Source of the DNA: Nibricoccus sp.
Lineage (GTDB): Bacteria > Verrucomicrobiota > Verrucomicrobiia > Opitutales > Opitutaceae
Reading direction: 5' to 3'
DNA: 64,000 nucleotides
Assembly (NCBI GenBank): GCA_047602425.1
Contig: JASGHG010000001.1
Location: 2,720,001 to 2,784,000, forward strand
Shown: piece after piece, positions 14,333 to 52,303 of the stretch
Numbering within the stretch: the stretch's first letter is position 1
How the letters are laid out: each line of letters begins with the position of its first letter
Program-made: the position numbers and the translations under genes
The notes under the pieces: generated by a model
Seen by the model: the letters and a program-made list of their open reading frames with translations, nothing else
The model's database searches: none
What the model was told of the DNA's origin: nothing

Positions 14333-14965
14333 TTAACGGTAAGCTGCGTCTTCGAGGCCTTGTTTTTTGATTTCCGACGAACCTTCCCAGATGATCTCGC
14401 TCGTGCGGGCGTCGATGAGCTGGAAGGTATAGAGAACGTAGTCGCTCACGCCTGCCGAGGTGCGGCCGGACATACCGCCGAGTTTGCCGGTAAGGAAGTA
14501 GTCGGCACCTTTGAATTCCACGACGTTTGGATCGGAGCTGGCGGTGACGGCACCTTGTTGCTTGAGGTCACGTTCGCGTTCGAGCGCCTTCATGCGGTCG
14601 CGGGCGAGGAAGCGGACTTTGCCATTGGCGTTTTCGTTGAGCTGCGCGCGAATGCGATCCGTGAACAGATCCTTGTTGATGGCGAAACGCGTTTCGTTGA
14701 CGACCGGATCGATAACGATGCGCGGGGTGACTTTGGCATTGGCGATTTCGGGCGTGCTGAGGATCTTGCGCGCCATCTTGTCGGTGACGGCGACGAGATC
14801 CTGCGATTCGATCCCGGTGCCGGCGACGAAGCCGCGTTCATCGGCTTTCATTTCGGTGACGGGAACGCCCGAGGGATTTTGCACGCCACGGCTGGCGCAA
14901 CCCGCGAGAAAGAGCGATGCGGCCCCGGCGCTGAGGATAACAATTCGTTGTAGGTGGTTTTTCAT
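14333..14965 (-). CDS. lpoB: LpoB-like (penicillin-binding protein activator family) lipoprotein
   Basis: Lipobox LAGC; 'VVNET', 'GADYFLTG', 'FQLIDARTSEIIWEG'. Confidence 0.8.
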   Translation of the reverse strand: MKNHLQRIVILSAGAASLFLAGCASRGVQNPSGVPVTEMKADERGFVAGTGIESQDLVAVTDKMARKILSTPEIANAKVTPRIVIDPVVNETRFAINKDLFTDRIRAQLNENANGKVRFLARDRMKALERERDLKQQGAVTASSDPNVVEFKGADYFLTGKLGGMSGRTSAGVSDYVLYTFQLIDARTSEIIWEGSSEIKKQGLEDAAYR

Positions 14966-15076
14966 CGGTTTGATCTGAGTAGTGGTAGTCGGAAAAATGC
15001 GGACAATTCAACGGCGGGCGAGCGGGTTTTGCGTCCCGGGCTTGCCGCGCTGCGAGGCCAATCGGGATGCGGCGCC

Positions 15077-15652
15077 TTAGCGGCCGAACATGCCATTGGC
15101 CGAGCTCATATTCGAGGAGCCGCCGTAATAGTTATTGATGATGGTTACGTTTTGCGGCGAAGACGCTGCGGGCTGGGCTGCCTGAGCGGGCGCGGGTTGG
15201 GCTGCGGGCGCGCTCACAACCTGTACGGGCTGGGCATACTCATAGCTCGGCGAGTAATAAACGGGGCGGCTGTAGCTATAATAAAAAGAAGGATAACCCC
15301 ATCCGTATCCATAATGGCGATACGGACGCGCGTGGTATCCGTAGTAGTGCGAACCATAGCCATAACCGACGCCATAGCTCACGCTCACGCGCGGGCCCCC
15401 ATGATAGTAACCGCCACTGTAATAACCGCCGTGGTGCCCTCGCGAATCCGAGGAAGCTCCGATCAACGCTCCGGCGGTTGCGCCGAAAGCGGCTCCAGCG
15501 ACGACGTCGTTGCGGTCTCCAGAAGCGCTGCCAATAATCGCGCCAGCCACGCCACCAATCAAAGCGCCCTTCAGTGCGCGATCAGACGCCTGAGTGGTTG
15601 CCGGTGCAAGCGAGGCAACGAGCAACAAGGATAAAGTAATCGAGGTTTTCAT
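15077..15652 (-). CDS. Glycine-zipper exported protein with Gly/Tyr/His-rich low-complexity region
   Basis: Signal peptide; 'GALIGGVAGAIIG' and 'GAAFGATAGALIG' zippers; YG-rich tract; A/P/Q linker. Confidence 0.75.
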   Translation of the reverse strand: MKTSITLSLLLVASLAPATTQASDRALKGALIGGVAGAIIGSASGDRNDVVAGAAFGATAGALIGASSDSRGHHGGYYSGGYYHGGPRVSVSYGVGYGYGSHYYGYHARPYRHYGYGWGYPSFYYSYSRPVYYSPSYEYAQPVQVVSAPAAQPAPAQAAQPAASSPQNVTIINNYYGGSSNMSSANGMFGR

Positions 15653-15753
15653 CGTTTGAATGGGTCTGCGGTTATAGGAAGACATGTCATTCCAAGCAAG
15701 GTTTCAGGAATCGCCTCGTCCGGCTGCCGGCTAAAGAGCAAAATGCCTAATAG

Positions 15754-18700
15754 TCACTTTTGCGGGACCAAAAGCGGTGCCTTAACTTGCGCTTGAGCAG
15801 CAACTTTCCGACTGCGGACCCAGTTTGTAAAACGATCCAGATAGAGGTACGCCACCGGGGTGATATAGAGTGTCAGGAGCTGGGAAACCAGCAGACCGCC
15901 GACCACGGATAAGCCCAACGGACGCCGGGATTCCGCGCCTGCGCCCAGACCCAATGCGATTGGAATCGCTCCGGCCAGCGCGGCAAACGTGGTCATCATG
16001 ATCGGGCGGAAACGTACGAGGCAGGCTTGGAAAATTGCTTTTTCGGCTGAGGTTTCGCCTGCGTCCCGCGCGGACAAAGCAAAGTCGATCATCATGATCG
16101 CGTTCTTTTTCACGATGCCGATCAGCATGATAATACCGACATAGCCCATGATGTTGAGCTCTTCGCCGAAAGCCCAAAGCGTAAACAGCGCGCCGAAGCT
16201 CGCCGCCGGCAAACCTGACAAAATCGTGAGCGGATGGATAAAATCTTCGTAGAGAATGCCGAGCACAATATAGATCACGAGGACAGCCATGATGAGCAGC
16301 AGGCCAAGTCCTTTGAGCGATTCCGCAAACGCTTTGGCGCTGCCTTGGAAGGCGAAGCTAATGGTTTCGGGAAGATGCTGACGTGCGAGTGCCGTGATGG
16401 CATCGTTCGCGTGGCTCAGTGAAGCGCCGGGCTTGAGGTTGAACGAAATCGTGACGGCCGGCACCTGGCCGAGGTGGTTGACGGTAAGCGGGCCGACGGT
16501 GCGTTCGATGCTGGCGACGGCGCTGACCGGGACGAGTTTGCCGTTGCGCGCGCGCAAATGCAGCGACGGCAGGTCGTCGGGATCGCGTTGGAATTCCTGA
16601 CCCACCTCCATGATCACGTAGTATTGATTTGCCGGTGTGTAAATGGTCGACACCTGCCGCGAACCATAGGCGCTGTACAAGGCGTCCTCGATTTGCTGCG
16701 GGGTGAGGCCAAGCCGCGCGGCGCGGTCGCGGTCAATGGAAACGCGGGCCTGCGGACTGGAGATTTGCAGGTCGGAATTGACGTCCACGACCGCATCCAC
16801 TCCGCGGATACGCGTTTCCATGTCACGCGCCGCGGCGTAGAGTTCTTCGAGATCGCTGCCGAACAAGGTGAATTGGTACAACGCACGGCTTTGCTGGCCG
16901 CCGATGCGGATGGGCGGCGGCTGTTGCGGATAAACGCGAAGGCCGGGAACTTGAGCGAGATCGCGGCGCAGTTCCTGGATGACATCGCCGATCGGTTTGC
17001 GCTCGTCGCGATCCTTGAGGCGCATGAACATATTGCCGGAATTAACGGCTCCCTGACCGCCACCGCCCGCGACGGATGACATAAAGGCAGCGACATTCGG
17101 ATTCTTTGCCACGATCGCCGCGGCGGTTTCCTGGTGAAGAATCATCTCGTCGAACGAAATATCCTGCGATGCCTCGGTGGGCGCGCGCACCAAGCCATTG
17201 TCGTCGCTCGGGATGAACCCTTGCGGCAACGCGACCGCCAACAACGCGGTGAGCACGGCCATGCCGACCGCAACTCCCACGGTGGTTTTGCGCCATTGCA
17301 GGCTCACTCGCAGCGTCCGCTCATAGAGCGAGCGCATGCCATCGATAAAGCGCTCCGTATTCCGATAGAAACGACCATGCGTTTTGGCCGCCTCTTCCGA
17401 ATGCGGTTTTAAAAACCGGCTGCACAACATCGGCGTCAGTGTCAGCGACACGATTCCCGAAACGATGATCGATGCGGTGATCGTGATGGCGAATTCGTGC
17501 AGCAACCGCCCGAGAATGCCGCCCATGAACAGAATTGGGATAAACACGGCGACGAGCGACAGTGTCATCGAGAGAATCGTGAAACCGATTTCACCCGAAC
17601 CTTTGAAGGCCGCCTCGCGCACGGTCATGCCTTTTTCGGTGTAGCGAACGATGTTTTCCAACATCACGATCGCATCGTCGACCACGAAGCCCACGGAAAG
17701 CGTGAGCGCGAGCAGCGAGAAGTTGTCCAGCGTGTAGTCCAAAAAATACATCGCTACAAACGTGCCGAGCAGCGCCATGGGAATGGCCACGGCCGGGATG
17801 AGCGTGGCGCGCAGGGTACGCAGAAAGAGAAAGATCACCAAAACCACCAGACCGATGGAAAGCAGCAGCGTAAACTCCACGTCGTGGACCGCCTCACGGA
17901 TTGCCTCCGAGCTGTCGCGTAAAATTTCCAGACGAACCGAGGGTGGGATTTGCTGTTCGAACTGCGGCATCAAGGCGCGGATGCGATCCACCACTTCGAC
18001 GGTGTTGGTGCCTGGCTGGCGTTGCACGGCGAGCACCACGGCGCGGTTGCCCTTGCCCCCCGTGTAATACCAGCTCGCGATGCGGCGATTTTGCACGCTG
18101 TCGATCACCTCGGCGATTTCGCCGAGACGCACGGGCGCGCTGTTGCGGTAGGCCACCACGAGGTCGCGAAATTCTTCCGCAGTGTCGAGCTGGCCGGTGG
18201 CGACGACCTGCATGGCTTGTTTGGTGCCATCGAGCACGCCGGTTGGCAGGTTGACATTATGTGCGGCGAGGGCGCTACGAACCTCATCGATTGCAATGCC
18301 GCGCGAGGCGAGAGCCTCGGGATTCAGGCGGACGCGCAAAGCGTATTTCTGTGAACCGAAAACCTGCACCTGTGCGACGCCGTCGACCATCGAAATGCGC
18401 TGTGCGACCAACGTTTCGGCATACTCGTTGACCATCGATAGCGGCAGGGTGGGGGAACTAAACGCCAGAAACATAATCGGCGAATCCGCGGGATTCGCCT
18501 TTTGCAATGAAGGCGGCGCCGGCATATCGGTCGGCAAGCGGCGTTGCACAGCGGCGATGGCGGCCTGCACGTCCTGCGCCGCAGCGTCGATGTTACGTTC
18601 GAGCGTGAAGGTGAGTGTGATCTGGGTCGAGCCGAGCGCGCTGGTCGAGACCATCGACTCGATGCCGGCGATGGTGGAAAACTGTTGCTCAAGCGGAGTG

Positions 18701-38536: not shown

Positions 38537-41026
38537 TTACTTCCGACGCGCAGCTGCTCGCATCGCGATTGCTGCGCTCAAAGCTGCGAAATACCAGAGT
38601 CCGACCGCTCCACCACCACCGCTGTTACCTGGGGCTGGAGATGGCGCGGGCGCGCCCGACGAAGAGCTACTTGAGCTGCTCGAAGAGGAGGATGACGAGG
38701 AACTTGAGCTGCTGCTCGAAGAAGAGCTGGAGGATGACGACGAACTAGAGCTGCCATTGGCCGTCAGGACAGCGACTCCCATTTGAGTGACGCCGCTCGA
38801 CGACGCAGTTGTTCCCGACAGCAGCAAGCGGCCATCGTCCGCAAAAGAAATCCCGTACGCGAACCGGTCCGTCAGATCTGGAACAGAAAAATTAGTATCC
38901 AAGGTGCCATCGGCGTTCAACCGGACGACGCCGCTCACGGAGACGCCATTGTACGAATCGAAGTCGCCGGAAACAACCACGCGTCCGTCGGTTTGAATGG
39001 CGATAGCTTCGATGTCTGGATTGGAGCCACCCAAGGTAAAACCAGTGCCGGTCGCAAATGTTGTATCCAGCGTGCCGTTTGTATTCAGACGAGCAATACC
39101 GTTGCGGGATGTGCTGTTGAACGTCGAGAACGAGCCGCCGGCAAGAATACGACCGTCGCTTTGCACCGCGACGGCGGTTACCGTCCCATCGAATCCGGTG
39201 CCAGGCGAAAAAGAGGTGTCGAGACTTCCATTGGTATTTAGGCGTGCGATGCGGCCCCGTGAAGTGCCATTGAAGGAAGTGAATGAACCGCCGGCCACAA
39301 TTCGGTTGTCCGACGGCTGCAGCGCTATCGCATACACGTAAGAGTTGAACCCTGTTCCGACGTTGAACGCGCTATCGGCCGTTCCGTTGGAGTTGAGTCT
39401 CACAATGTAGTTTTGCGATGCATCGTCGTACGTGGAGAAAAAGCCGCCCACCACAAGGCGTCCATCGGGCTGTTGTACGATTGAAGTAACACCTCCGTTG
39501 AATGCAGTGCCGGGATTGAAACTGGTATCGCGCCCTCCGTCGGCGTTGAAGCGCGCAATTCGATTCAAGGACACACCATTTAGTTGAGTAAAGAAACCGC
39601 CCACCACGATTCGATCGTCGGCTTGCACGACCACCGTATTGACGTCGCTGCCGCTAAAGACGCTGGTGTTGAAGGTGGTGTCCAACGTGCCATTGGCGTT
39701 CAATCTCGTGAAGTAATAACGAACGATATTGTTCACTAAATTGAAGGAGCCGCCTACAATAAACTTTCCATTTGCAAGAGGTACAATGTGGGCGGCGCCC
39801 GCGGTCCGTGAATTGCCGCTTAGCGCGGTGTTCAACGCCCCCATGGAGGTCAAACGGGCGATCCCCGGGGTGGCTGTGCCATTGAAATTTAGGAACGATC
39901 CACCTGCGATAATGCCGCCACCCGATTCGATCATGAGAGCATAGACGTTGCTGTCGAACCCAGGGCTAGGAAGAAACGTCGGATCTACTGTACCATCGTT
40001 TTTCAGGCGAATGATATTGCTCCGGGCGATGCCATTATAACTGGAGAAAAATCCCCCGGCCAAAATCATGCCGTCGGATTGCAGCGCCACGGAAGCGACG
40101 CTGCCATTAAATCCGGAGCCTATGACAAAACTTGTATCCAGCGTGCCATCGGTGTTGACGCGTGCGATGTAGTTTTGCGCGGTTCCGTTGAACTGCCCAA
40201 AAAGTCCCGCCGCGATGATCTTTCCATCGGATTGCAGGGCTACGGAAGAGACAGAGGAATCAAAACCCGTGCCAGGATTGAAGGATGAATCCAAAGATCC
40301 ATCGGAATTCAGGCGGGCAATACCCGTGCGAGAGGCGCCGGTGCTCGGGATAAACAGTCCACCAGCGATAATTTTTCCACCGGATTGCAGTGCCAGTGAA
40401 AACACAGTTCCATTGAATCCGGTCGGCGGAACGAATGTCGTGTCCAAGGCTCCCGTCGATGTTAGCCGGGCAAGACCACGGCGCGTCGTTCCGTTGTATT
40501 GAGTGAAGGTACCACCTGCCAAAACAGATCCATCTGATTGCACGGCGAGAGTGCGCACGCGGCCGTTGAAACCGCCGCTGGTGCTGCGAAACGTCGAATC
40601 AAGCAACCCATTTGGGAGCAGACGCGCAATGCCGCCACGAGCCGAACCATTCACCTGGGTAAAATCACCGGCGATCAAGATATACCCGTCGGATTGAACT
40701 GCTATCGCACGGATGCTGCCATTCGGCGCGAGGCTGGAACTAAACGCCAAGTCCAAGGTGAAGTCGGAATTGAATTTGGCGACATAGCTGCGCGATCTGC
40801 CTGCGATGGTTGTGAAGTCGCCACCAACGATAAAACCGCCGTCCGAGGTTGCGGCGACGGCATTGATGATCGCGTTGCTTTCCAGCGCGGTCGCAAATGT
40901 GGGATCGACCCGATAGGTATCCCCATAAGTGATCGCTGCTTGAGCGAGGGCGGTCCCGAAGAAAATCCCGAGAAAACCGAATTTGAAAAGAAGGGTCACT
41001 ACACCACCAAAAGAAGATGATTTCAT
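38537..41026 (-). CDS. Secreted delta-60 repeat beta-propeller protein with poly-Ser linker and GlyGly-CTERM-like anchor
   Basis: Signal peptide; 13 full plus one split 'V..Q.DG.I..GG.F...NG.....IARL..DG.LD..F' repeats; 32 Ser; tail 'GGGGAVGLWYFAALSAAIAMRAAARRK'. Confidence 0.88.
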   Translation of the reverse strand: MKSSSFGGVVTLLFKFGFLGIFFGTALAQAAITYGDTYRVDPTFATALESNAIINAVAATSDGGFIVGGDFTTIAGRSRSYVAKFNSDFTLDLAFSSSLAPNGSIRAIAVQSDGYILIAGDFTQVNGSARGGIARLLPNGLLDSTFRSTSGGFNGRVRTLAVQSDGSVLAGGTFTQYNGTTRRGLARLTSTGALDTTFVPPTGFNGTVFSLALQSGGKIIAGGLFIPSTGASRTGIARLNSDGSLDSSFNPGTGFDSSVSSVALQSDGKIIAAGLFGQFNGTAQNYIARVNTDGTLDTSFVIGSGFNGSVASVALQSDGMILAGGFFSSYNGIARSNIIRLKNDGTVDPTFLPSPGFDSNVYALMIESGGGIIAGGSFLNFNGTATPGIARLTSMGALNTALSGNSRTAGAAHIVPLANGKFIVGGSFNLVNNIVRYYFTRLNANGTLDTTFNTSVFSGSDVNTVVVQADDRIVVGGFFTQLNGVSLNRIARFNADGGRDTSFNPGTAFNGGVTSIVQQPDGRLVVGGFFSTYDDASQNYIVRLNSNGTADSAFNVGTGFNSYVYAIALQPSDNRIVAGGSFTSFNGTSRGRIARLNTNGSLDTSFSPGTGFDGTVTAVAVQSDGRILAGGSFSTFNSTSRNGIARLNTNGTLDTTFATGTGFTLGGSNPDIEAIAIQTDGRVVVSGDFDSYNGVSVSGVVRLNADGTLDTNFSVPDLTDRFAYGISFADDGRLLLSGTTASSSGVTQMGVAVLTANGSSSSSSSSSSSSSSSSSSSSSSSSSSSSSSSSGAPAPSPAPGNSGGGGAVGLWYFAALSAAIAMRAAARRK
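38657..38752 (-). repeat. Poly-serine coding tract (32 codons, all six Ser codons used)
   Basis: Translated by hand from the minus strand. Confidence 0.9.
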
Positions 41027-42036: not shown

Positions 42037-44124
42037 ATGACCCCTGCAGGATCCTTTTCTAAATGGCCGCGCGTGCTCGCATGGAGCGCGGTGTCGCTGG
42101 CTGGCGTGTTTTCTTTGGCGGTGTTGGCCTGGTCGAGAGGCGAGCCAGTCAACGCATTGTGGGTCGTGATCGCGTCGGTATGCGTGTTCGCGATATCCTA
42201 TCGGTTTCACAGCGCCTGGTTGATGGCAAAGGTGCTCACACTCGACGAATTGCGGGCGACGCCGGCGGTGGTGCATGAGGACGGACGCGATTTCGTGAAG
42301 ACGAATCGTTGGGTGGTGTTTGGGCATCATTTCGCGGCGATTGCCGGGCCGGGCCCGCTGGTGGGGCCGGTGCTGGCGGCGCAATTTGGATTTTTACCGG
42401 GTCTTTTGTGGATGTTGATTGGTGCGACTTTAGGCGGTGCGGTGCACGACTCGGTGATTTTATTCTGTTCGACGCGGCGGCGCGGAAAATCGCTCGGACA
42501 AATGATCAGTGAGGAAATCAATCCCCTGGCAGGCATAATCGCGTTAGTGAGCATTTTGGCGATTTTAGTTATCTTGATCGCAGTGCTGGGACTGGTGGTG
42601 GTCAACGCGCTGGCGGAAAGCCCCTGGGGCCTGTTCACAATTGCGGCGACGATGCCGATAGCGGTTTTCATGGGGCTGGCGATGCGCGGCGCCGGGCACA
42701 ATTCCAAGGCATTGCTTTGGATCAGTGTGCTGGGTGTGGTGGCTTTACTGGCGTCGGTCTACGCGGGAAAGTTTGTGCATGATTCGGCGACTTGGTCGGC
42801 GGTTTTCACTCTGAAAGGCACGACGCTGGCGTGGTGGATGATCGGCTACGGGTTGCTGGCTTCGGTGCTGCCGGTGTGGCTGTTGCTCGCGCCGCGCGAC
42901 TACCTGAGCACGTTCATGAAAATTGGAACGGTTGCACTGCTGGCGGTGGCGATTGTGGCAATAGCGCCGATGTTGAAAATGCCATCGGTCACGAAATTCG
43001 TCGACGGCACGGGACCGGTGCTGGCCGGGTCGGTTTTTCCTTTCTGTTTTATTACGATCGCATGTGCCGCCGTGTCGGGTTTTCACTCGCTGATCTCATC
43101 GGGCACGACGCCAAAAATGATCACGCGCGAGAGCGATATCCGGGTGATTGGTTATGGTGCGATGGTTACGGAGATGCTGGTCGGCGTGATGGCGTTGATC
43201 GCGGCATGTGCGATGGAGCCGGGTGAATATTTTTCGGTGAATATGAAAGGTACGCCTGCGGTGGTCGTGGCAAAGGTGACCGCGCTGGGATATCCGGTGA
43301 CGGAGGCGCAGATGGCGTCGCTTGCGGCGGACGTGGGCGAACAAACCATGATTGGGCGCACGGGCGGAGCGCCGACGTTTGCAGTGGGCATGGCCAAAAT
43401 CTTTTCGAGCGTGCTTGGCAGCAAAGCGGCGCTCGCGCTGTGGTATCACTTTGCGATCATGTTCGAGGCGTTATTTATTCTCACGACCATCGACGCGGGA
43501 ACGCGGGTGGGACGATTCTTGATGCAGGATTTGCTGGGGCGGGTGTGGTCACCCCTGGGGCAGACTCGTTCGACCGTGGGCAATGTGGTGGCGAGTGCGG
43601 CGTTTGTTGCCGCTTGGGGTTGGTTTTTGTACGCAGGTGTGATCGATCCGCTCGGCGGCATCAACAGCCTCTGGCCAATCTTCGGCGTGGCCAACCAGTT
43701 GCTCGCCGTGCTGGCGCTGGCGCTCGGCACGACGGTGTTGATCAAGATGGGGCGTGTACGGTATCTCTGGGCGACGATTGGACCATTGATCTGGTTGCTT
43801 GCGGTAACGATGACCGCGGGCTGGATGAAGATTTTCAGCGGCGATCCTCGTGTGGGTTTCCTTAGGGCCGCCGCGGATCTCCGGGCGAAAATCGCCGCGG
43901 GCGGCACAAGCGCCGGCCAGGTTGACGTCTGGCAGCATCAGCTGACCAATAGTTATGTCAACGTCGCGGTGACGGGCGCTTTCATGTTTTTGGTTCTGCT
44001 GGTTGTTTTGGTTTGTGCGCGTGAATGGTGGCTTTTGCTGGGGAAGCATCGCCAGCCAGTGTTGCGCGAGGAACCTTACGTAACGTTATCGGCTGAGGAG
44101 CGAGGCCAGTTGCTCGCGCGGTGA
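42037..44124 (+). CDS. cstA: Carbon starvation protein A family transporter (CstA/BtsT)
   Basis: Motifs 'FGHHFAAIAGPGPLVGP', 'PVWLLLAPRDYLS', 'SGFHSLISSGTT', 'GRTGGAPTFAVG'. Confidence 0.95.
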   Translation: MTPAGSFSKWPRVLAWSAVSLAGVFSLAVLAWSRGEPVNALWVVIASVCVFAISYRFHSAWLMAKVLTLDELRATPAVVHEDGRDFVKTNRWVVFGHHFAAIAGPGPLVGPVLAAQFGFLPGLLWMLIGATLGGAVHDSVILFCSTRRRGKSLGQMISEEINPLAGIIALVSILAILVILIAVLGLVVVNALAESPWGLFTIAATMPIAVFMGLAMRGAGHNSKALLWISVLGVVALLASVYAGKFVHDSATWSAVFTLKGTTLAWWMIGYGLLASVLPVWLLLAPRDYLSTFMKIGTVALLAVAIVAIAPMLKMPSVTKFVDGTGPVLAGSVFPFCFITIACAAVSGFHSLISSGTTPKMITRESDIRVIGYGAMVTEMLVGVMALIAACAMEPGEYFSVNMKGTPAVVVAKVTALGYPVTEAQMASLAADVGEQTMIGRTGGAPTFAVGMAKIFSSVLGSKAALALWYHFAIMFEALFILTTIDAGTRVGRFLMQDLLGRVWSPLGQTRSTVGNVVASAAFVAAWGWFLYAGVIDPLGGINSLWPIFGVANQLLAVLALALGTTVLIKMGRVRYLWATIGPLIWLLAVTMTAGWMKIFSGDPRVGFLRAAADLRAKIAAGGTSAGQVDVWQHQLTNSYVNVAVTGAFMFLVLLVVLVCAREWWLLLGKHRQPVLREEPYVTLSAEERGQLLAR

Positions 44125-46021
44125 CGGGATGGACGGCCCTGAAAATCGTTGTGACCGACCTAGCGCGCACCGGCATTGGCCGGGGGCTTGATCCGTTTTG
44201 GTGTAATTTGATGACAAAACGGACGAGCGAAACAACCTCGTCATCGGAGAGGTATTCACGTCCGGCCATCGGGGTGTTGGGCTGGCCAAATTTGACGATG
44301 CGGGCGAGTTGCAACTCTTTCGAAGGGTCGGACTCGGTGGTGTGTCGCCACGGGTCGCGGGTAAAGTCCGGGGGACGTAAGCTGAGTTGCGACGCGAGCG
44401 GTCCATCGCCGCGTCCTTCGACGCCATGGCAGCTGGAGCATAGTTCGGTGAAACGCTTGCGCTGTTTTGTTTCGGTAAAGATGGTTGCGCTAGGCGAAGG
44501 ACGCCAAGCCTGCGCGGTCTCGGCGCGGATCGTGACGTCGTCATCGCCGAGTGTTCCGAGGTAGGCGACGAGCGCGGGACCGCGTGGATCATTTTCTTTG
44601 AAAAGATGCGCGTAGGACGGCATGCGCGAATCCGGGGTGAGGCTTCGCGGAGCGATCAAGTGGAGACGGTTCCATTCGGCGGTCCGCCGGCTGGCGATTT
44701 GCGATAGATCGGGGCCTTGACGACGGTTGCCATAAAGTGGCGGTTTTTGGGGCAGACTTTTGGCCAGCGGAATTGCGGAACCCCAACGTTCGACGTCGGC
44801 TGTGCCGGGGCGCACGTATTGCGAATGGCAGTGAATGCAGCCTTCGGAAATGTAGATCTCGCGTCCAAGTTTGACGATCGAATCGTCGGCCCTGCTGTCC
44901 GGGGGATATAGAAGAACGATTGCGAGCAAAGGCAAAGAACCCGCAACAGGGCGCAGGCGCCTGATTCCCCAGTGGCGAACCAGAAGGGCCAAACACGCAA
45001 CCACGGCTGCACTCACGACAAACGAGAGTGGAATTTCATGCAGCGATTGCACCATGCCAATTCCCATGGCGGAACCAAACCAACCGGAAGCGGCAAAAAG
45101 CAGCCCCGCCAGCCAGGCGCGGCCGCCTTGCGCAGGGTAGAAGACGAGTGCCGTCGAATAGATTGAAACGCCGGCGGTGTACAGAACACGAGTTGCGGAA
45201 GGGACGTCGTTGTTTTGGCAGAGCAGCACGCAGGCACCAAGCAGGACGACCAGCGCAATGCCGATGGCCAGTGGTTGCAGTTTGCGGTCGAGCAGCAGGC
45301 CTGCAATCACGGCGGCACCGAGATGGACGAGGGCATTTTGTTCCAGCACGGAGCCGCCCTGCCAGGTCGCGATTTTTAGATGTGGACTGTGCTGAAGGAT
45401 GAAGAAGGCAGCCGAGTCGATCCACACCAGGGTGAGAAATAAAACCACCCACACCGCGACAATCCGTGGGTGATATTCAGGAATGGCGGGCTTTTCGACC
45501 GGCGTGCTTCGGACGCGAAACGAAATCAATAGACCGACTAAAGCGGCTATGATTGCGACAACTGTTTGAACTTGCGGTGAGGCGTTGAAGATGGGTGGCT
45601 GGTTGCAAATCGCGTAGGCCAGCCCGGTGCCGACGCCACAGCAAAGACCGAGATGTTTAATCCCCCCGGTGGGCCGCAAGCAGAGCACGAGCGACACCGT
45701 CGTCCAAGCGAGGCTGCCGCCGACGGCGACAGCGGAGACAATAGCTAACACTTGGTTCTGGGCGAGCAGGCTGAGTCCGGCCGCGAGTCCGCAACTGGCA
45801 AATCCCAAGGTGAGTTGACGGGAGCCAATGCTTTCGCGAAACCATTTGGCAGCGGCAACACTTCCGCCAATTCCGGCGAGTCCGAGTGCCGCCATCAGCG
45901 GTTTTAAGCCGGCTTCCTGCACGACGGCGCGCAGGTTTTCGATGAATGCGAATTCGGCGAAGATCAGAAAATACACATAGACCGCTGCAATCGCGAGGAT
46001 GCTGGTGAGGGCATCCTTCAT
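43982..46021 (-). CDS. Fusion: MFS-like multi-pass membrane domain + CcoO/FixO-like cytochrome c + second class I cytochrome c domain
   Basis: About 12 hydrophobic helices with 'AGLLLDRK'; 'GCIHCHSQYVRP', 'GNRRQGPDL', 'PDSRMPSY' (CcoO-like); 'CSSCHG...NTPM' second haem. The C-terminal ~65 aa look like read-through. Confidence 0.82.
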   Translation of the reverse strand: MKDALTSILAIAAVYVYFLIFAEFAFIENLRAVVQEAGLKPLMAALGLAGIGGSVAAAKWFRESIGSRQLTLGFASCGLAAGLSLLAQNQVLAIVSAVAVGGSLAWTTVSLVLCLRPTGGIKHLGLCCGVGTGLAYAICNQPPIFNASPQVQTVVAIIAALVGLLISFRVRSTPVEKPAIPEYHPRIVAVWVVLFLTLVWIDSAAFFILQHSPHLKIATWQGGSVLEQNALVHLGAAVIAGLLLDRKLQPLAIGIALVVLLGACVLLCQNNDVPSATRVLYTAGVSIYSTALVFYPAQGGRAWLAGLLFAASGWFGSAMGIGMVQSLHEIPLSFVVSAAVVACLALLVRHWGIRRLRPVAGSLPLLAIVLLYPPDSRADDSIVKLGREIYISEGCIHCHSQYVRPGTADVERWGSAIPLAKSLPQKPPLYGNRRQGPDLSQIASRRTAEWNRLHLIAPRSLTPDSRMPSYAHLFKENDPRGPALVAYLGTLGDDDVTIRAETAQAWRPSPSATIFTETKQRKRFTELCSSCHGVEGRGDGPLASQLSLRPPDFTRDPWRHTTESDPSKELQLARIVKFGQPNTPMAGREYLSDDEVVSLVRFVIKLHQNGSSPRPMPVRARSVTTIFRAVHPVTARATGLAPQPITLRKVPRATLAGDASPAKATIHAHKPKQPAEPKT

Positions 46022-46031
46022 GCTCGGCTGA

Positions 46032-46454
46032 TCAGACGCTTGAGCTATTGACGGCGGAGGCATTGCTCGCGGCGAGTTTTTTGACGAGCCAGAGTTGGAA
46101 TCCGACGAGGGCAAAGTCGGTGGCGGGTACGCTGATCCATGCGAACGACAGCCAGCCAAGCGCGATGGCCGTTCCGGAAAAGGCGCCGGCAGAAATCCGG
46201 AAGAGGATCGTGAGTTCGAGCGTCAAACGCAGGCGATCGGGCCCGCCACGAACCAAGGCCCAGAGGTAACACGCGCCGACCGCGCCGACGAACGCACCGA
46301 CAAATCGCAGATAAACGAGCGCCTCGCCTTCAGGCGTAGCCACGCGCATCAAGGGCAGGACGAGGCGCGGAAAGAAGACGAGCCCCAAGCCGGTGCAGAG
46401 GTCGAGAGCTCCGGCGACTAGAGCGAGAAGGCGGGCAATGGAGGGGATGGGCAT
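46032..46454 (-). CDS. Small four-TM membrane protein
   Basis: 140 aa with four hydrophobic segments; 11 and 10 nt from its neighbours. Confidence 0.75.
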   Translation of the reverse strand: MPIPSIARLLALVAGALDLCTGLGLVFFPRLVLPLMRVATPEGEALVYLRFVGAFVGAVGACYLWALVRGGPDRLRLTLELTILFRISAGAFSGTAIALGWLSFAWISVPATDFALVGFQLWLVKKLAASNASAVNSSSV

Positions 46455-46465
46455 CGTGAAGCAGA

Positions 46466-47767
46466 CTAAAGATTGCGCTCAAGAAATCGAGGACGTTGCA
46501 AAAACCAGGACAGCGACACCGCCCACATGACCAGTCCGGCCACGAGGCGGATGCCATAACAGGTTTGCGACCAGCCGCGACTAAGGAAGAGCGAGCTGGG
46601 ATCGGTGTACTCGGTCCAGCCTAGCGCGGCCAGCGCGACAATATGCAAGCCCAACGCTCCCTGCCACACATGGAAACCGCGCGTGATCGGACGGTCGGGG
46701 TCGAGCAGATTGAGGATCGCGAGGTTAAAGCAGGTGACGAGACCGGCGAGTGCGAGGTGGGCGTGAGCCACGAAGCCATTGGTGAATTTCAATCGCTCCG
46801 AAATACCGGGCAGGAAAAAGACGAAGCCGGAAATCACCAGCAACAACCACCAGAAGAAGGCTGCGACAAGCCAGCGTCGGGCGACGGAAGGCCAAAGATA
46901 GCCGTGAAAATGCTGCCAGCCGAGTGGTATCCACATGGCCAATACGCCAAGCCCGGCCTGTTGGGAGGCGCTCTTGCTTGAGGCGTGACCATGGCTGATC
47001 ACCAGATACACCGCTACGGAGATCGCGTACATCGTCCAGAAAGTGCTTTGGCGCTGGCGAACGTCGGCGGTGCGTGCCGGGACATCCAGCAGGAGCGGAA
47101 TGAGTCCGTAGATGGCGATGATGCCGAGCGTGGAGGCCAGCAAACTTGCACCGGTTGCGCCTCCGCTGTCAGGGTTGACTGGCGGATACACCTCGCGTCC
47201 CGAGGCCCAAAAGAGCGCCGGCGGAACGGCGAGCAACAATAGCAAAAAACCGAACTGGGAAAGCCGCTCCAAAGTTTTTAATGCGCGCCGGTTTGTCCAA
47301 AATTGCCAGACGAGCCCCAGCCAGAGAACGGTCATCGCCGCCGGCAGAAGCGGGCGCGCCCAACCATCCCAGTCGATGAAGATTTTTCCGCTGCTGAGGC
47401 CGCAGAGCCAGGAAATGCCGGCGGCCGCTAGGGCCAGCGACCACGCTCGCAAGGCCACCCGGTTCAGCCGGGCCGTGCTCGCATTTGGGCCGCGGCCAAT
47501 CCAACGGAGCAAGACGCCCACGAGCGGCAGCGAGCACCAGCCGTAGAGCTGCCAGTCGAGGTGGAGGGGGATCCAGCGTCCGTAGGTAAAGGGCGCGAGT
47601 TTATCTCCAAGCGCGGGCCAGAGTAACAAGATCGCCAGCAATACGCCCACGCTGTTGGCGGCGACGAGCCAGAAAAGGCTGTGCCGGGATACGCTTCGGG
47701 CCAGCGAGATCCAGGCCGCGGCTTGGGCGGGCGGAACTGGCCGGGGGACATCGCTCATGGCAGGCAA
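46466..47767 (-). CDS. Divergent CcoN-like haem-copper oxidase superfamily subunit I lacking a canonical CuB site
   Basis: 'TYGRWIPLHLD' ~ CcoN 'SFGRLRPLHTN'; 'GLSSGKIFID' ~ 'GFTSSKEYAE'; 'KFTNGFVAHAHLALAG' ~ 'HYTDWTIGHVHAGALG'; 'IRLVAG' ~ 'VRMIGG'. Start may be 47758. Confidence 0.8.
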   Translation of the reverse strand: MPAMSDVPRPVPPAQAAAWISLARSVSRHSLFWLVAANSVGVLLAILLLWPALGDKLAPFTYGRWIPLHLDWQLYGWCSLPLVGVLLRWIGRGPNASTARLNRVALRAWSLALAAAGISWLCGLSSGKIFIDWDGWARPLLPAAMTVLWLGLVWQFWTNRRALKTLERLSQFGFLLLLLAVPPALFWASGREVYPPVNPDSGGATGASLLASTLGIIAIYGLIPLLLDVPARTADVRQRQSTFWTMYAISVAVYLVISHGHASSKSASQQAGLGVLAMWIPLGWQHFHGYLWPSVARRWLVAAFFWWLLLVISGFVFFLPGISERLKFTNGFVAHAHLALAGLVTCFNLAILNLLDPDRPITRGFHVWQGALGLHIVALAALGWTEYTDPSSLFLSRGWSQTCYGIRLVAGLVMWAVSLSWFLQRPRFLERNL

Positions 47768-47773
47768 GGCCGT

Positions 47774-48451
47774 TCACTCTTCCGTGAGTTGGCCGTCGCG
47801 CACCCGGATGCGACGATGGCAGGCCTCGGCAAAACGCCTCTCGTGGGTCGCAAGAATCACGGCGATACGACTTTGCTCCGCGAGTGTGCGTAGGAGCGCG
47901 AAGACGGTTTCGCCGGTTTTTTCGTCGAGGGAACCGGTGGGTTCGTCGGCAAGGATGATGTTGGGCGAATTCATGAGCGCGCGGCAGATGGCGGTGCGCT
48001 GGCGTTCGCCGCCGGAAAGATCCTGAATGCGGTGATTGAGCCGGTGGCCGATGCCGACTTGTTCGGCAAGCTCGCGAAGGCGATTCGCAGCCACAGCGGG
48101 CGCCATTCCTGCGGCAATGGCGGGCACGCGGAGGTTTTCCACCACGGTGAGATCGGCGATGAGATTGTGCAGTTGAAAAACGAACCCAAGATGGCGCCGG
48201 CGAAGGACGAGGCGATCGGTTTCGCTGCGCGGGTCGAGCGAGCATACGCGCAGTTCGCCACTGTCGGGCAGGTCGAGTCCGCCGATCAGATGAAGCAGGG
48301 TGCTTTTTCCGGAACCGGACGATCCCCACAAAGCGACGAGTTCGCCCGCGCCGACTTCGAGGTTGGCATCGCGCAACACGGAAATAGCGCCCTTGTCGTA
48401 GGTTTTCCAGACGCTGCGTACGGAAACAAGATTTTGGCCGGGACTATTCAT
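47774..48451 (-). CDS. ABC transporter ATP-binding protein (LolD/MacB-like)
   Basis: Motifs 'GSSGSGKST', 'GFVFQ', 'LSGGERQR', 'ILADEPTG', 'ATH'. Confidence 0.96.
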   Translation of the reverse strand: MNSPGQNLVSVRSVWKTYDKGAISVLRDANLEVGAGELVALWGSSGSGKSTLLHLIGGLDLPDSGELRVCSLDPRSETDRLVLRRRHLGFVFQLHNLIADLTVVENLRVPAIAAGMAPAVAANRLRELAEQVGIGHRLNHRIQDLSGGERQRTAICRALMNSPNIILADEPTGSLDEKTGETVFALLRTLAEQSRIAVILATHERRFAEACHRRIRVRDGQLTEE

Positions 48452-49556
48452 AGCGCAGGGCTTCCGCAGGTTGAATGCGCGAGGCGAAACGCGCGGGATA
48501 AATGGCACCGGCCACGGCTGTGCCGATGGCGGTGAGCACGATGCCGACGACGATCAGCGGTTGGACGCTGGCCTGAATGTAGCCGTGGAATTGCGGTACG
48601 TTTTGAAGAATTCCGAGGACCGCGATGCCGAGCGAGAAACCGAGGACAAGTCCGGCGAGTGCAATGGCGATGGCTTCGCCAAAAATCAGCGCGGCCACCT
48701 GACCGGTGGAGAAGCCGCAGACGCGAAGAATGGCGATTTCGCGGATGCGGCTGAAAACGGAGAGCAGCATTGTGTTGGCCACGCCGAGCCCGCCGAGGAG
48801 AAACGCGCAGATGCCGACCGCCCACGCCGTGAAATGCAGGATTTTGAACTGCGTGTAGCTCTGGTTGAACTCGCGGTTTTCGAGCGCGATGAGTTTGGGA
48901 TATTTTGCTTCGATGGCGGCCTTGAATTGGGCGCCGGTTTTTTGGTCGCGAAGTTTTACGGCGATGATGGAGCAGGCGTTTTCCTTATGAAAAAATTCCT
49001 GAGCATCCTTGAGCGGCAGGAAGACGCCGCCGTCCTCGAAGCCGTTTTCGGTTTTGAAAATACCGCCAACCTTCAGCTCGATTGCGCCGATTTCCAGCAT
49101 TGCGCCGGGCTTGGCTTCAAGAAACTCGGCGGCGCGCGAACCGAGAAAAATTTCTCCATCGTTTTTACCGAACCTTTCGCGTGAGCCAAAACGCCATTCG
49201 GCTTTTGCGAGCCGCGGATCGGCTGGATCGACGCCGAAGCAGGTGATGATCGGATGTCCGGGTGCGGAAACGATGCCGAAAAGCAGCGGATTGGCTGATT
49301 CGACCTCCGGCTGGGTTCGGACAGCGTCGACCTGCTCCATCGTGACGGAGCTGAAGAACAGATCGGAAACGTTGCGTTCGAAAACGAGATAGTGGCTGTC
49401 GGTTGCCAGGATGCGCTCGAACATGCCGATCGCACCGGTGACGATCGCGAGGATCGTGAGCATGGCGGCCACGCCGAAGCCGATGCCGGCGACGCCGATG
49501 GCGGCGCGGATGCGGTGACGACGAAGGTTGATGAGGATCAGCGAGAGCAGACGCAT
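48444..49556 (-). CDS. ABC transporter permease (MacB/FtsX family)
   Basis: TM1, large periplasmic domain, then three TM helices; 'RIREIAILRVCG', 'YPARFASRIQPAEALRYE'. Confidence 0.93.
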   Translation of the reverse strand: MRLLSLILINLRRHRIRAAIGVAGIGFGVAAMLTILAIVTGAIGMFERILATDSHYLVFERNVSDLFFSSVTMEQVDAVRTQPEVESANPLLFGIVSAPGHPIITCFGVDPADPRLAKAEWRFGSRERFGKNDGEIFLGSRAAEFLEAKPGAMLEIGAIELKVGGIFKTENGFEDGGVFLPLKDAQEFFHKENACSIIAVKLRDQKTGAQFKAAIEAKYPKLIALENREFNQSYTQFKILHFTAWAVGICAFLLGGLGVANTMLLSVFSRIREIAILRVCGFSTGQVAALIFGEAIAIALAGLVLGFSLGIAVLGILQNVPQFHGYIQASVQPLIVVGIVLTAIGTAVAGAIYPARFASRIQPAEALRYE

Positions 49557-49595: not shown

Positions 49596-50156
49596 TCAAG
49601 CGCCGCCCGCGACGCGTCCTTCAAGGTGAAATTTGATCTTCAGCAGAGGGTTCACCTTGAGCATGCCGAACTTTTTGAAAATCGGTAAGCCGTAGTCTTG
49701 CGTATCCAGCGGGAATTCACTGTCGAGTTTACAGGTGCCGTCGGTTTGAATCAGGATGGTGACGGGGAAACTGATTTCCTTGGTTACTCCGTGCAGTGTG
49801 AATTTTCCATTGGCATTGTAGAGGTCGCCTCCAACGGGTTTAAGCGAATCCATCACATAGAGGCAGTCGGGAAATTTTTCGGTTTCCTGCCAGTGGTTCA
49901 TTTCAACGTCGCGTTTGTCCTTGCCCGTTTTCACATCGGTGAAACGGAATTTGACTTGGGCACTTTCAACGCGTTTTGCCGCGGGATCGACCGCGATGGC
50001 GGCGTCATATGCGGGAAGACTGGCGGTAAAACTATCCATGGTTGCCTTCACCGCGACCTCGATTTTGGAGCGATCCTTGTCGATGGTGAGAGGAACGGCA
50101 AACGATGGCAGTGAAGCGAGCACGAAGAGTGCGGTGGAAAACAGGAGATTTTTCAT
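49596..50156 (-). CDS. YceI-family periplasmic lipid/polyisoprenoid-binding protein
   Basis: Signal peptide; 'TGKDKRD', 'GKFTLHGVTKEI', 'DYGL'. Confidence 0.9.
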   Translation of the reverse strand: MKNLLFSTALFVLASLPSFAVPLTIDKDRSKIEVAVKATMDSFTASLPAYDAAIAVDPAAKRVESAQVKFRFTDVKTGKDKRDVEMNHWQETEKFPDCLYVMDSLKPVGGDLYNANGKFTLHGVTKEISFPVTILIQTDGTCKLDSEFPLDTQDYGLPIFKKFGMLKVNPLLKIKFHLEGRVAGGA

Positions 50157-50281: not shown

Positions 50282-52303
50282 TTACCGGGGCGTATGAGCG
50301 ACCACGAGCTCCTTTGTGAGGTGCATCGAGTTGGCGGCCGCGGTTTCAGCGGGCGTCAGTGCGCGGTAGAGGCGGTTCTTGTAAAGATAACTCGCGGTTT
50401 GGTAGTACGCGATGGTTTCCGGGATGTCGTCGCAGCTGTTGTCGCTGCGTGGGGTGAGCGTGAACGTGTTGGGATTGTAGCTATATTGGGTGGTTCCCCG
50501 GACGGGTTTCAAGACTGCGAGCATGCCCGGCTCATAAAGGCCAAGACGCTGGTAGTTGCCGATGAGGGCCCGGCGGTCACCGGTGGCGCGGCGAACGTCC
50601 CACCCGAAGAAGCGACTTGGATAAGACCAGTTGAGCAGGCCGAGCAGCGTCGGCGCGTAATCAACCTGGCTGGTAAGGTCGGCAATGTGGCCGGGGGCGA
50701 TCTGGCCGCCGGGCGCGTAGACGAACAGAGGAATGTGATAGTTCTGTACGGGTAGTTCGGTTTTTCCGGCGGAGGAGGCGCAGTGGTCGGCAACGACGAC
50801 AAAGACCGTGTTTTTAAACCAAGGGCGGGTCGAAGCCTCGCGGATGAACTGGCCGATGGCGAAGTCGGTGTATTTCACTGCGCCGGCCCGACCGGAGATT
50901 TTCGACGGCAAGTCGATTTTACCCTCGGGGTAGGTGAAGGGCCGATGGTTCGAAGTGGTCATCACGAAATGGAAAAACGGTTTTCCCTCGGCGGCGGCGC
51001 GGTCCGCCTCGCGCAGGGTCCAACGGTAAAGATCCTCATCGCAGGCGCCCCACGCATTGGCGAAGGTGATGTCGCTTTTCGCAACCCCGGCGCGGTCGAC
51101 AACGCGATAACCATTGTGACCGAAGAAATAGTTCATGTTGTCGAAGTACCCGTAGCCGCCATAAATGAACGCAGTATCGTAGCCTTTGCTTTGAAAAACC
51201 GAACCAAGGGTGAACAGGTTTTCATTGTGCGGGCGTTTGACGAGTGAGCGGCCCGGGGTGGGGGGAATCGAGAGCGTGAGGGCTTCCATGCCGCGGTCGG
51301 TGCGTGTGCCGGTGGCGTAGAAGTTGTCGAAGACCAGGCTTTGACGGGCGAGAGCCTCCAGTTCGGGCGTAAGCCGCGACGCGCGGTTGAAGATGCTGAG
51401 AAAATCGGCGCTCAGGCTTTCAACCGTGATCTGGATGACATTGAGTTTTAGTTCTGGACCCTGGTTTTTGACGAAGCGGAGCGTATCCCGGGGATTGTTG
51501 CCCAGAGGCATGCTGCCGTCGTAGGCGAGCTCGGAATGCAACTTTTTGAAAGCCTCATCGAGCGGGAGCGTCGCGTAAAACTGGTCGTAATCGAGTTCGT
51601 TGTTGCGGAAGGCGGCGAAGAGCGACCAGACGCCGTTTTTGGCGAGCTCGCGATTGTAGTTATTGGCGAACGACGGCAGGCGGTCTGAGTCCAGCACGAT
51701 GCCCGCCACGAGCGCGGCGCCGAACCAGCCGCAAGCTCCCAACCAGCGTTGCCCGGCGCTTTCGGTGGCGTCGTCCAGCCAGCGGCGAACCCAGCCGGTG
51801 CGCAGCACGAAGGCATAGGCGGCGATCGTGACGGCAAAAATCCCGGCGAAGATCCAGGGCATCGGGTAGGATTCGCGGATGTTGTCGATCACCTCGTGGG
51901 TGTAGACGAGATAGTCGACTGCGATGAAATTGAAGCGGGCGCTGAACTCATCCCAGAACACCCACTCGGAAACCGCACCAAAAAGACAGAGCCAAAGTGC
52001 GCCCATGAGGCATAGGTGGGCGAGCCCCCGCGCCCAGAGTCTTTCGAAAAACCGCGCGGGCAGCGCCGTGAGCAGCAGGATCACCGGCAGCGCGAACAAC
52101 AGGCTTGCGCCAAGATCGAAAAGCAGGCCCCAGGCGAACGCGGCTACCAAACTGCTGTCGAAGCTGACTGCGGCGACGGATTTTGCCAGCAAAGCAAGCC
52201 GGGTGGTCAGGGAGACCGCGCCAAAAAGCACGAGGAATATGAGCACGCCGCCGTGCCGCCGTTCAAGAAGGCGAAAAAAGGTCGAACGCAAAGGAAGTCG
52301 CAT
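50282..52303 (-). CDS. LTA synthase / sulfatase family membrane protein
   Basis: Five N-terminal TM helices; 'ITVESLS', 'TGTRTDRG', 'TTSNHRP', 'VADH'. Confidence 0.92.
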   Translation of the reverse strand: MRLPLRSTFFRLLERRHGGVLIFLVLFGAVSLTTRLALLAKSVAAVSFDSSLVAAFAWGLLFDLGASLLFALPVILLLTALPARFFERLWARGLAHLCLMGALWLCLFGAVSEWVFWDEFSARFNFIAVDYLVYTHEVIDNIRESYPMPWIFAGIFAVTIAAYAFVLRTGWVRRWLDDATESAGQRWLGACGWFGAALVAGIVLDSDRLPSFANNYNRELAKNGVWSLFAAFRNNELDYDQFYATLPLDEAFKKLHSELAYDGSMPLGNNPRDTLRFVKNQGPELKLNVIQITVESLSADFLSIFNRASRLTPELEALARQSLVFDNFYATGTRTDRGMEALTLSIPPTPGRSLVKRPHNENLFTLGSVFQSKGYDTAFIYGGYGYFDNMNYFFGHNGYRVVDRAGVAKSDITFANAWGACDEDLYRWTLREADRAAAEGKPFFHFVMTTSNHRPFTYPEGKIDLPSKISGRAGAVKYTDFAIGQFIREASTRPWFKNTVFVVVADHCASSAGKTELPVQNYHIPLFVYAPGGQIAPGHIADLTSQVDYAPTLLGLLNWSYPSRFFGWDVRRATGDRRALIGNYQRLGLYEPGMLAVLKPVRGTTQYSYNPNTFTLTPRSDNSCDDIPETIAYYQTASYLYKNRLYRALTPAETAAANSMHLTKELVVAHTPR

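Follow-up and report, generated by a model that had tools for sequence, protein, structure and literature searches.

What a membrane transporter is doing in one reading frame with parts of a respiratory oxidase is the question raised by the 64,000-nucleotide stretch of Nibricoccus sp. analyzed here (contig JASGHG010000001.1 of assembly GCA_047602425.1, positions 2,720,001 to 2,784,000; hereafter the window). A first-pass annotation of this DNA had noticed, at 43982–46021, a transporter-like domain fused to CcoO and to a second c-type cytochrome, and had proposed that transport is wired to, or gated by, haem redox. We find that one open reading frame holds a 12-helix fold of the major facilitator superfamily (MFS), a CcoO-like domain and a second cytochrome c, that this fusion protein fails the tests for CcoA, CcoP and full-length CcoO, and that its likely oxidase-fold partner, the CcoN-like protein encoded two genes upstream, fails the test for a cbb3 catalytic subunit. 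No description of the fusion protein or of its operon was found in the open-access literature. The fold test, the prediction of a cleavable linker, the survey of fused and split forms, the spread to Acidobacteriota and the tie to published expression data are new.

Is the reading frame itself genuine? The minus-strand frame from 46021 to 43982 encodes 679 amino acids with no internal stop and contains every motif quoted at first (RVRSTPVEKPAIPEYHPR, AGLLLDRK, CIHCH, RMPSY, CSSCH and NTPM). Residues are counted here from the ATG at 46021; the true start is probably the ATG at 46063, 14 codons upstream, because the three closest homologues begin MPLPP. A homologue search scored 7997 candidates, 1553 of which matched; among the best 120 listed, 119 span 81–90% of the query, and an assembly artefact or frameshift is excluded. 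Alignment A1 (116 rows) leaves out 5 of these 120 (four near-duplicates and one partial), and alignment A2 leaves out 8 long fused forms of 120. The C-terminal 72 residues are peculiar to this copy and result from read-through: 75 residues follow L604, against 4–22 in 115 homologues, GC content at third codon positions is 0.49 in the tail versus 0.64–0.65, and over 143 bases (43982–44124) the tail shares its DNA with the 3′ end of cstA, a convergent gene on the opposite strand. At the closest locus, L035, a stop and a short gap are found where the tail of the window copy overlaps cstA. The AlphaFold2 model built from the 116-row alignment (overall pTM 0.61) shows the two haem domains and a disordered tail.

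Does the N-terminal part adopt the MFS fold? AlphaFold2 predicted 12 long, high-confidence helices over residues 2–356, residues 1–356 were covered by all 50 rows listed by VIA-align, with an MFS transporter as best match (Z 29.0, root-mean-square deviation 3.4, 337 residues aligned), and the top Foldseek rows were MFS transporters as well, so that the structural check proposed in the first-pass annotation bears out its assignment. Family names are scarcer. Pfam gave no credible match over the N-terminal 370 residues of the fusion protein, PF07690 matches 5 of 28 members of the MFS family, NCBIfam names none of these 28 rows, and the ESM Atlas returned unnamed clusters plus one with MFS_1 in 18% of its members, which is uninformative; the analysis defines an MFS family as yet without a name. 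A profile search with the domain gave 600 clusters at 50% identity, whose best 150 representatives were classified; some of the solo rows among them may be cut. Conserved positions are Y136, N140, D202, Q210, W220, H233, Y281, Y288 and W314, with D202 (helix 7) and H233 (helix 8) invariant, H233 the sole conserved histidine and no conserved cysteine. The motif-A-like string noticed at first is present, yet it lies in the loop between helices 8 and 9, the repeat position of motif A (100/116 rows), and not between helices 2 and 3 (0/116). Copper import of the CcoA type was considered and rejected: the MxxxM of helix 7 occurs in 0/116 rows and 1/150 representatives, and the HxxxM of helix 8 in 0/116 and 0/150, the helix 8 position reading H233xxxA237 (motifs as defined in PMC6362234). 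The transporter likely moves a lipid-like solute.

In the haem part, FixO (PF02433) matches residues 385–477 with 98.9 bits (cut-off 29.6) and PF00034 residues 524–603 with 44 bits; exactly two CxxCH motifs occur in 116/116 aligned rows, and the RMP methionine and M585 are likewise kept, in agreement with the earlier assignment of a CcoO-like domain with a probable axial methionine followed by a second c-type cytochrome, which is of the His/Met kind. The CcoO-like domain scores 115–117 bits against solved CcoO, and its mean identity is 0.62 versus 0.43–0.46 for the membrane parts. The full-length CcoO equivalog TIGR00781 reached 100.3 bits against a cut-off of 200.65, covering only model positions 52–143 of 232. 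The idea that the second haem domain replaces CcoP had to be abandoned: it scores 17.8 bits against TIGR00782 (cut-off 179.95), carries a single CxxCH, is missing in 11/84 haem-bearing fusions and is closer to a hypothetical di-haem cytochrome (6h5l_B, 72 bits) than to CcoP, a di-haem subunit with its own anchor (39.7 bits), and the genome has its own ccoNO-ccoP operon. At 44258–44260 the window copy encodes R588, where 100/116 fusions have a histidine after the axial methionine.

How do the haem domains reach the periplasm? The original topology, with 12 transmembrane helices only, overlooked a 13th hydrophobic segment (residues 349–378) between transporter and cytochrome. Clusters of Lys/Arg follow helices 2, 4, 6, 8, 10 and 12, and therefore both ends of the transporter lie in the cytoplasm; c-type haem attachment is extracytoplasmic, so that a 13th crossing is needed to put the haem domains outside, and these are almost certainly periplasmic. 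AlphaFold2 gives pLDDT below 50 at residues 360–378. A loose signal-peptidase motif is found in 97/116 rows against 58 ± 5 in 2000 shuffles (maximum 73), a strict one in 50/116 against 12 ± 3; the peptidase motif is enriched in Opitutales loci (48/59 against 30 ± 3). The usual CcoO sits in the membrane by a single N-terminal anchor that is not cleaved. Stand-alone cytochrome genes open with the same kind of segment (5 loci, and 7 in a second set). From these patterns, cleavage at the AxA site in Opitutaceae, with an uncleaved anchor in Acidobacteriota, seems on balance the better expectation; two points speak against it, namely that the motif is not enriched in distant metagenome loci (16/45 against 11 ± 3; strict, 4/45 against 4) and that the peptidase patterns were picked after the data were seen. 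If the segment is cleaved, the 70-kDa haem-stained band suggested earlier as a check may be missing in Opitutaceae. The stand-alone CcoO-like genes L055:8468–8986 and L056:10584–11075 have a cysteine after the hydrophobic stretch, possibly a lipoprotein signal, and the anchoring mode of the cytochrome seems free to vary. A comparable design is the cytochrome b-c1 polyprotein FbcH of Bradyrhizobium, in which a polytopic membrane protein, an internal signal and a c-type cytochrome are translated together and cleaved after export; there, unlike here, both products are subunits of one known complex.

Is the fusion peculiar to this assembly? It recurs, as the first-pass annotation had asked, in many genomes of Opitutaceae and Acidobacteriota, the homologues including proteins named Opitutus terrae and Rariglobus hedericola and, in Acidobacteriota, members from Thermoanaerobaculia, Terriglobus roseus, Acidicapsa and Terracidiphilus. 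In a phylum sample of 401 genomes, 13 (the source included) have a full-length match and 2 the MFS and CcoO parts only, while in 10 the best arrangement is a stand-alone MFS gene or separated genes. The best 150 MFS representatives comprise 73 three-domain proteins, 11 MFS-CcoO fusions, 65 with MFS only and 1 broken. The operon survey (best 80 of 120 genome loci found with the CcoN-like partner) holds 55 three-domain fusions, 5 MFS-CcoO fusions, 7 cytochromes without MFS, 9 MFS only (7 near contig ends) and 4 too short; because the genome-locus sets partly coincide with the phylum sample and consist of relatives, these counts are not independent. On a midpoint-rooted FastTree of 147 MFS domains (6/150 representatives were left out for a short domain, or as haem-free with a length outside 340–420), the fused or solo state changes at least 21 times, against 46 ± 3 with shuffled labels. 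Separate genes in L056 and L055 meet at TGA/ATG or TCATGA junctions. The solo MFS genes L057:9404–10657 and L058:9223–10485 retain a relic 13th hydrophobic segment and lie just before an LTA-synthase-like (lipoteichoic acid synthase) gene, an arrangement reminiscent of the LtaA flippase; with the cytochrome elsewhere, they look like products of fission. In P0307 (1016 amino acids), the fusion runs on into a metallo-beta-lactamase-fold hydrolase, of a family that also neighbours the operon in 13/80 genome loci and 17/80 metagenome loci.

The survey bears directly on the explanation first offered, that an intact polypeptide uses the redox state of its haems to drive or gate MFS transport. The fusion is indeed present in 60/80 genome loci and in two phyla, and distant members without the peptidase motif probably remain tethered. 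Yet the linker is flexible, non-conserved and probably cleavable, and the haem domains follow a signal-peptide-like segment just as they do in stand-alone cytochrome genes. Moreover, many genomes encode transporter and cytochrome separately, with about 15 kb or more than 300 kb between the two genes in some, and 65/150 representatives stand alone with the same cavity residues (Y136, N140, D202, Q210, H233, Y281, Y288 and W314 are equally conserved in 84 fused and 60 solo copies). The transporter offers no conserved cysteine and the single histidine H233 for such a role, and we regard redox-gated transport as highly improbable.

What, then, do the haem domains serve? The CcoN-like protein has a haem-copper-oxidase fold, found with Foldseek as well and about equally close to cNOR (4xyd, Z 27.5) and cbb3 (3mk7, Z 27.0). 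Both MAFFT and HMMER, used to align it with CcoN, show that the haem histidines of helices II and X are kept, all three of cbb3 (H66, H332 and H334) being present in the window copy, and that the WYGHN of helix VI is gone. Over 104 partner sequences, H66 and H332 occur in 104/104 and H334 in 83/104, and the WYGHN-type motif with the helix VI CuB histidine in 0/104; the helix VII pair reads D/S-H in the CcoN alignments and S-H in the window copy. The cbb3 catalytic subunit is defined, in PMC11214002, by three CuB histidines and a His-Tyr cross-link. Five residues past the helix VII pair, an SHH motif is found in most relatives (H261 in 99/104, H262 in 84/104). Two observations tell against a complete departure from oxidase chemistry: this SHH pair may be a shifted second-metal site persisting in most members, and identity to CcoN is only 13–15%. 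On this evidence the CcoN-like/CcoO-like pair is very likely not an O2-reducing cbb3 oxidase, and the haem-copper superfamily gains a family that has no copper histidine in helix VI, the most deviant case described so far being gNOR with one histidine replaced. By analogy with cbb3, the CcoN-like protein is probably the docking site of the CcoO-like domain.

An atypical terminal oxidase or nitric oxide (NO) reductase with a rearranged metal site was also weighed. It would account for a fold as near to cNOR as to cbb3 and for the well-conserved CcoO domain (0.62 against 0.43–0.46), and gNOR, the first family with one active-site histidine replaced (Murali et al., PMC11214002), shows that one such histidine can give way to aspartate. 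Here, however, the helix VI histidine is missing in 104/104 and the second helix X histidine in 21/104, and the window copy lacks the SHH pair as well, reading SSK. In addition, two complete CcoN genes are found elsewhere in the source genome (4.99 Mb and 3.27 Mb), and expression of the genes assigned to this family falls rather than rises at low O2 (see below), so that we consider an atypical oxidase or NO reductase very unlikely. The non-haem metal site of NO reductases has three histidines (or two plus Asp/Asn) and a glutamate; by the alignment to CcoN the helix VI histidine is absent here, and most relatives, though not the window copy, keep an SHH pair. At 4.99 Mb, ccoN and ccoO are fused and accompanied by ccoP, ccoG and ccoI-like genes; the copy at 3.27 Mb is a second ccoN/ccoO with a cytochrome c and follows immediately on the genes of an alternative complex III. 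In a distant clade (L162, L171, L182, L185 and 17 further metagenome loci), the second histidine of helix X is gone (GHSLLAMAG); a methionine three residues further on, present in 101/104, might replace it as haem ligand. At 46976–46981 the window copy has S261-K262 where most partners have His-His.

Published expression data may concern this very family. T. roseus DSM 18391, which we take to be strain KBS 63, encodes the fusion (P0443, 40% over 630 residues), and we infer that P0443 is Terro_4250. Nanomolar O2 brings no induction of the "cbb3" genes in either T. roseus or Acidobacterium capsulatum, a surprising outcome (Trojan et al., PMC8407424); in A. capsulatum the genes are lower at low O2 (log2 fold change −2.2 to −3.6, adjusted p < 1e-6), ACP_0885 showing −2.7 and −3.6 (PMC8407424). 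The primers for Terro_4248 encode LVIIAI and LCWWIV, which family members match at 5–6 of 6 positions and canonical CcoN at 3 or fewer, and 16/20 members of the Terro_4248 clade predict exactly the stated 283-base product. The reverse primer for ACP_0885 encodes MAMAGF, the helix X motif of the family (at least 5 of 6 positions in 46/104); for the A. capsulatum forward primer the control on spacing lacked specificity, offsets 0 and −3 each giving 31 matches. From these primer-encoded motifs we infer that the acidobacterial "cbb3 oxidases" of that study would belong to the CcoN-like family. If this is true, the absent induction in both species (PMC8407424) is simply explained. In databases and in one study, the operon goes under the label of a high-affinity respiratory oxidase. 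Among abundant bacteria of soil and fresh water, annotation as a cbb3 subunit is carried by hundreds of genes, which can enter counts of markers for microaerobic respiration; if those genes are this system, such counts are wrong.

The operon gives further clues to function. Its genes (Table 1) lie on one strand with spacings of −65 to 125 bases, and the common order among relatives is yceI, prenyl synthase, ABC permease, ABC ATPase (of an ATP-binding cassette transporter), CcoN-like gene, DUF4345-like gene, fusion, regulator and kinase. In the 64 genome loci with at least 4.5 kb of upstream DNA, the ABC pair occurs in 63, YceI in 61, the prenyl synthase in 53, regulators in 41 and the sulfatase in 17; a metagenome survey of 80 loci, many of them short, gave the CcoN-like partner in 51, YceI in 36 and the synthase in 34. 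The synthase is of the short-chain farnesyl/geranylgeranyl diphosphate type, with DDLPCMD and DDxxD motifs, the closest solved YceI structure is 5ixh, and lipids are the targets of the accessory neighbours (PAP2, ArnT-like, sulfatase, metallo-hydrolase). Haem efflux of the HrtAB type was considered for the ABC pair; its 13 listed solved relatives are LolC/E/F, MacB, YtrF and one unnamed permease. Promoter and terminator scans came out at chance level (1 versus 2.0 and 11 versus 12.3), and correlations between the identity matrices of partners (0.73–0.88) reflect kinship and were not used.

Table 1. Fusion gene, its domains and the operon genes in the window
Feature	Position	Strand	Remarks
Fusion gene	43982..46063	(-)	Probable start ATG 46063
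Non-conserved C-terminal read-through	43985..44200	(-)	Overlaps cstA 3′ end
Second mono-haem class I cytochrome c domain	44201..44473	(-)	CxxCH 44426-44440, Met585 44267-44269
CcoO-like cytochrome c domain	44546..44881	(-)	CxxCH 44825-44839, Met467 44621-44623
13th segment, residues 349-378	44888..44977	(-)	Basic n-region, hydrophobic h-region, predicted signal-peptidase-I site between SRA and DD
12-helix MFS-fold domain, unnamed family, residues 1-356	44954..46021	(-)	AlphaFold2, Foldseek, VIA-align
Motif-A-like GxxxDR, loop 8-9	45281..45301	(-)	100/116 rows
140-aa membrane protein, DUF4345-like (below cut-off)	46032..46454	(-)	Fused to CcoN-like protein in 4/80 loci
430-aa haem-copper-oxidase-fold protein (CcoN-like)	46466..47758	(-)	H66, H332, H334 kept; helix VI CuB His absent
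ABC ATPase, LolD/MacB-like	47774..48508	(-)	
ABC permease, MacB_PCD + FtsX, LolC/E/F- and MacB-like	48444..49556	(-)	
YceI-family lipocalin (isoprenoid-binding family)	49596..50156	(-)	PF04264 73.9 bits
LTA-synthase/phosphoglycerol-transferase-like membrane sulfatase, accessory	50282..52303	(-)	17/64 loci

Some variants lie at the edges of this picture. In the distant genome of L046, a di-haem cytochrome c peroxidase gene (CCP_MauG; 14514–16325) stands just upstream of yceI; the ABC pair is absent, and an MMPL transporter lies downstream. A 290-residue protein with no Pfam or NCBIfam match (L039:2374–3240) lies between sulfatase and PAP2 in 12/80 genome loci. In the window itself, 38537–41026 encodes a Delta-60-repeat beta-propeller protein whose long linker is made of serines and whose C-terminal membrane anchor, rich in glycine, resembles a GlyGly-CTERM sorting signal.

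The regulators open another possibility, that the operon answers metal stress, handling copper or another metal through the SHH motif and an MFS site of D202 and H233 under a CusRS-like regulator. Their best NCBIfam matches are TIGR01387 and TIGR01386, D202 and H233 are invariant in helices 7 and 8, and the histidine pair is kept in 84–99 of the 104 partners. Those matches, however, fall below cut-off with PmrA/QseB models scoring close, the CalT motifs are absent in 116/116, the prenyl synthase and YceI would have no clear role, and no copper chaperone or efflux gene recurs. A role in metal stress thus appears quite unlikely.

How could these parts work together? Our preferred reading, which is tentative and drawn by analogy, is an O2-induced isoprenoid or lipid redox system of the cell envelope resembling LcoA-BcnA. 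The prenyl synthase would make a short isoprenoid, and the MFS and LolCDE-like ABC transporters would move it, or a related lipid, across and out of the inner membrane onto periplasmic YceI. The signal-peptide-like segment would export the haem domains, being likely cleaved from the transporter in Opitutaceae, and these would relay electrons to the neighbouring oxidase-fold haem protein as its subunit II. The haem chain could then re-reduce the YceI-bound lipid or remove lipid peroxides in the manner of LcoA-BcnA, and the fusion would serve mainly to couple expression and membrane targeting.

Several points weigh against this reading. The substrate and the reaction are guesses. Short prenyl diphosphates have no redox activity, and the surveyed loci show no recurring gene for a head-group or a prenyl-transferase. 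The window operon is without a prenyl synthase, the best matches of the genome (30% and 27%) lying elsewhere, and this locus has no two-component system; either the isoprenoid step is dispensable or the window copy is eroding (S261 replaces a histidine kept in 99/104). Where regulators are present, they score best against heavy-metal CusRS-type models, below cut-off. That two phyla have kept the fusion suggests that linkage brings some selective advantage. Finally, expression in T. roseus is very low and weakly O2-dependent (log2 fold change −0.9 to −1.5, adjusted p 0.04–0.37; PMC8407424). With S261-K262, R588 and the loss of the synthase and regulators, the window lineage may be eroding or re-specialising.

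Perhaps the haem module is instead a tailoring oxidase of a prenyl compound or membrane lipid, the MFS, ABC and YceI proteins exporting its product, so that the operon would serve to make a compound rather than to quench damage. The short-chain synthase looks active (DDLPCMD and DDxxD), the open high-spin haem histidine H332 is the sole helix X ligand kept in 104/104, export machinery is nearly universal at the loci, and an enzyme that uses O2 would fit the higher expression at high O2. The synthase, however, is missing from the source genome and from 11/64 loci and no prenyl-transferase or cyclase recurs, and a tailoring oxidase seems to us rather unlikely. Returning to the lipid redox system, its fullest version is doubtful: an oxidase-fold family would have left respiration and, together with the transporter-cytochrome polyprotein, would form a complete isoprenoid redox shuttle of the envelope (synthesis, flipping by the new MFS family, extraction by the LolCDE-like ABC pair, transport on YceI and recycling of the redox state through the haem chain), in which the Acidobacteriota tether may couple lipid flipping to redox.

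Which known systems come closest? The cbb3 oxidases CcoNO(Q)P (3MK7, 8SMR) share the CcoO-like domain, the 12-helix partner fold and the haem histidines; here the helix VI CuB histidine is lost, the helix VII pair is altered and there is no CcoP, the CcoO domain is truncated, fused to an MFS protein and preceded by a signal-like leader, and the operon adds YceI, prenyl synthase and ABC genes. Moreover, cbb3 is expressed at low O2, whereas the A. capsulatum genes assigned here to this family are repressed at low O2. The cNOR NorBC, gNOR and NOD proteins (PMC11214002) share the C-branch fold (Z 27.5 to 4xyd) and a cytochrome c second subunit; gNOR replaces one active-site histidine, whereas the family here is without the helix VI histidine, shows variation at one or both positions of the helix VII pair, and has no denitrification genes recurring nearby. 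CcoA/CalT (PMC6362234) shares the MFS fold, the helix 8 histidine and a genomic link to cbb3-like genes, but the fusion transporter has aspartate in helix 7 and belongs to a separate family of about 600 clusters. PRK14486, a bifunctional CcoO/cytochrome c, has the same order of CcoO and then cytochrome c (95 bits), yet the match is far below the cut-off of 447 and the model has no MFS domain. The nearest working model is LcoA-BcnA, because of YceI, the prenyl synthase, the LolCDE-like ABC pair, the lipid-modifying neighbours and the higher expression at high O2. In that system (PMC9113575), a YceI lipocalin and a membrane haem protein, cytochrome b561, keep lipid peroxidation in check and are not needed when O2 is low, and mutants accumulate lipid peroxides. 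A yceI gene tied to a membrane haem protein and an oxygen-linked role are shared. No cytochrome b561 was found among the window operon genes or the 57 neighbours scanned; the haem protein here has an oxidase fold rather than that of b561, and c-type haems, an MFS transporter, an ABC pair and a prenyl synthase are added to it.

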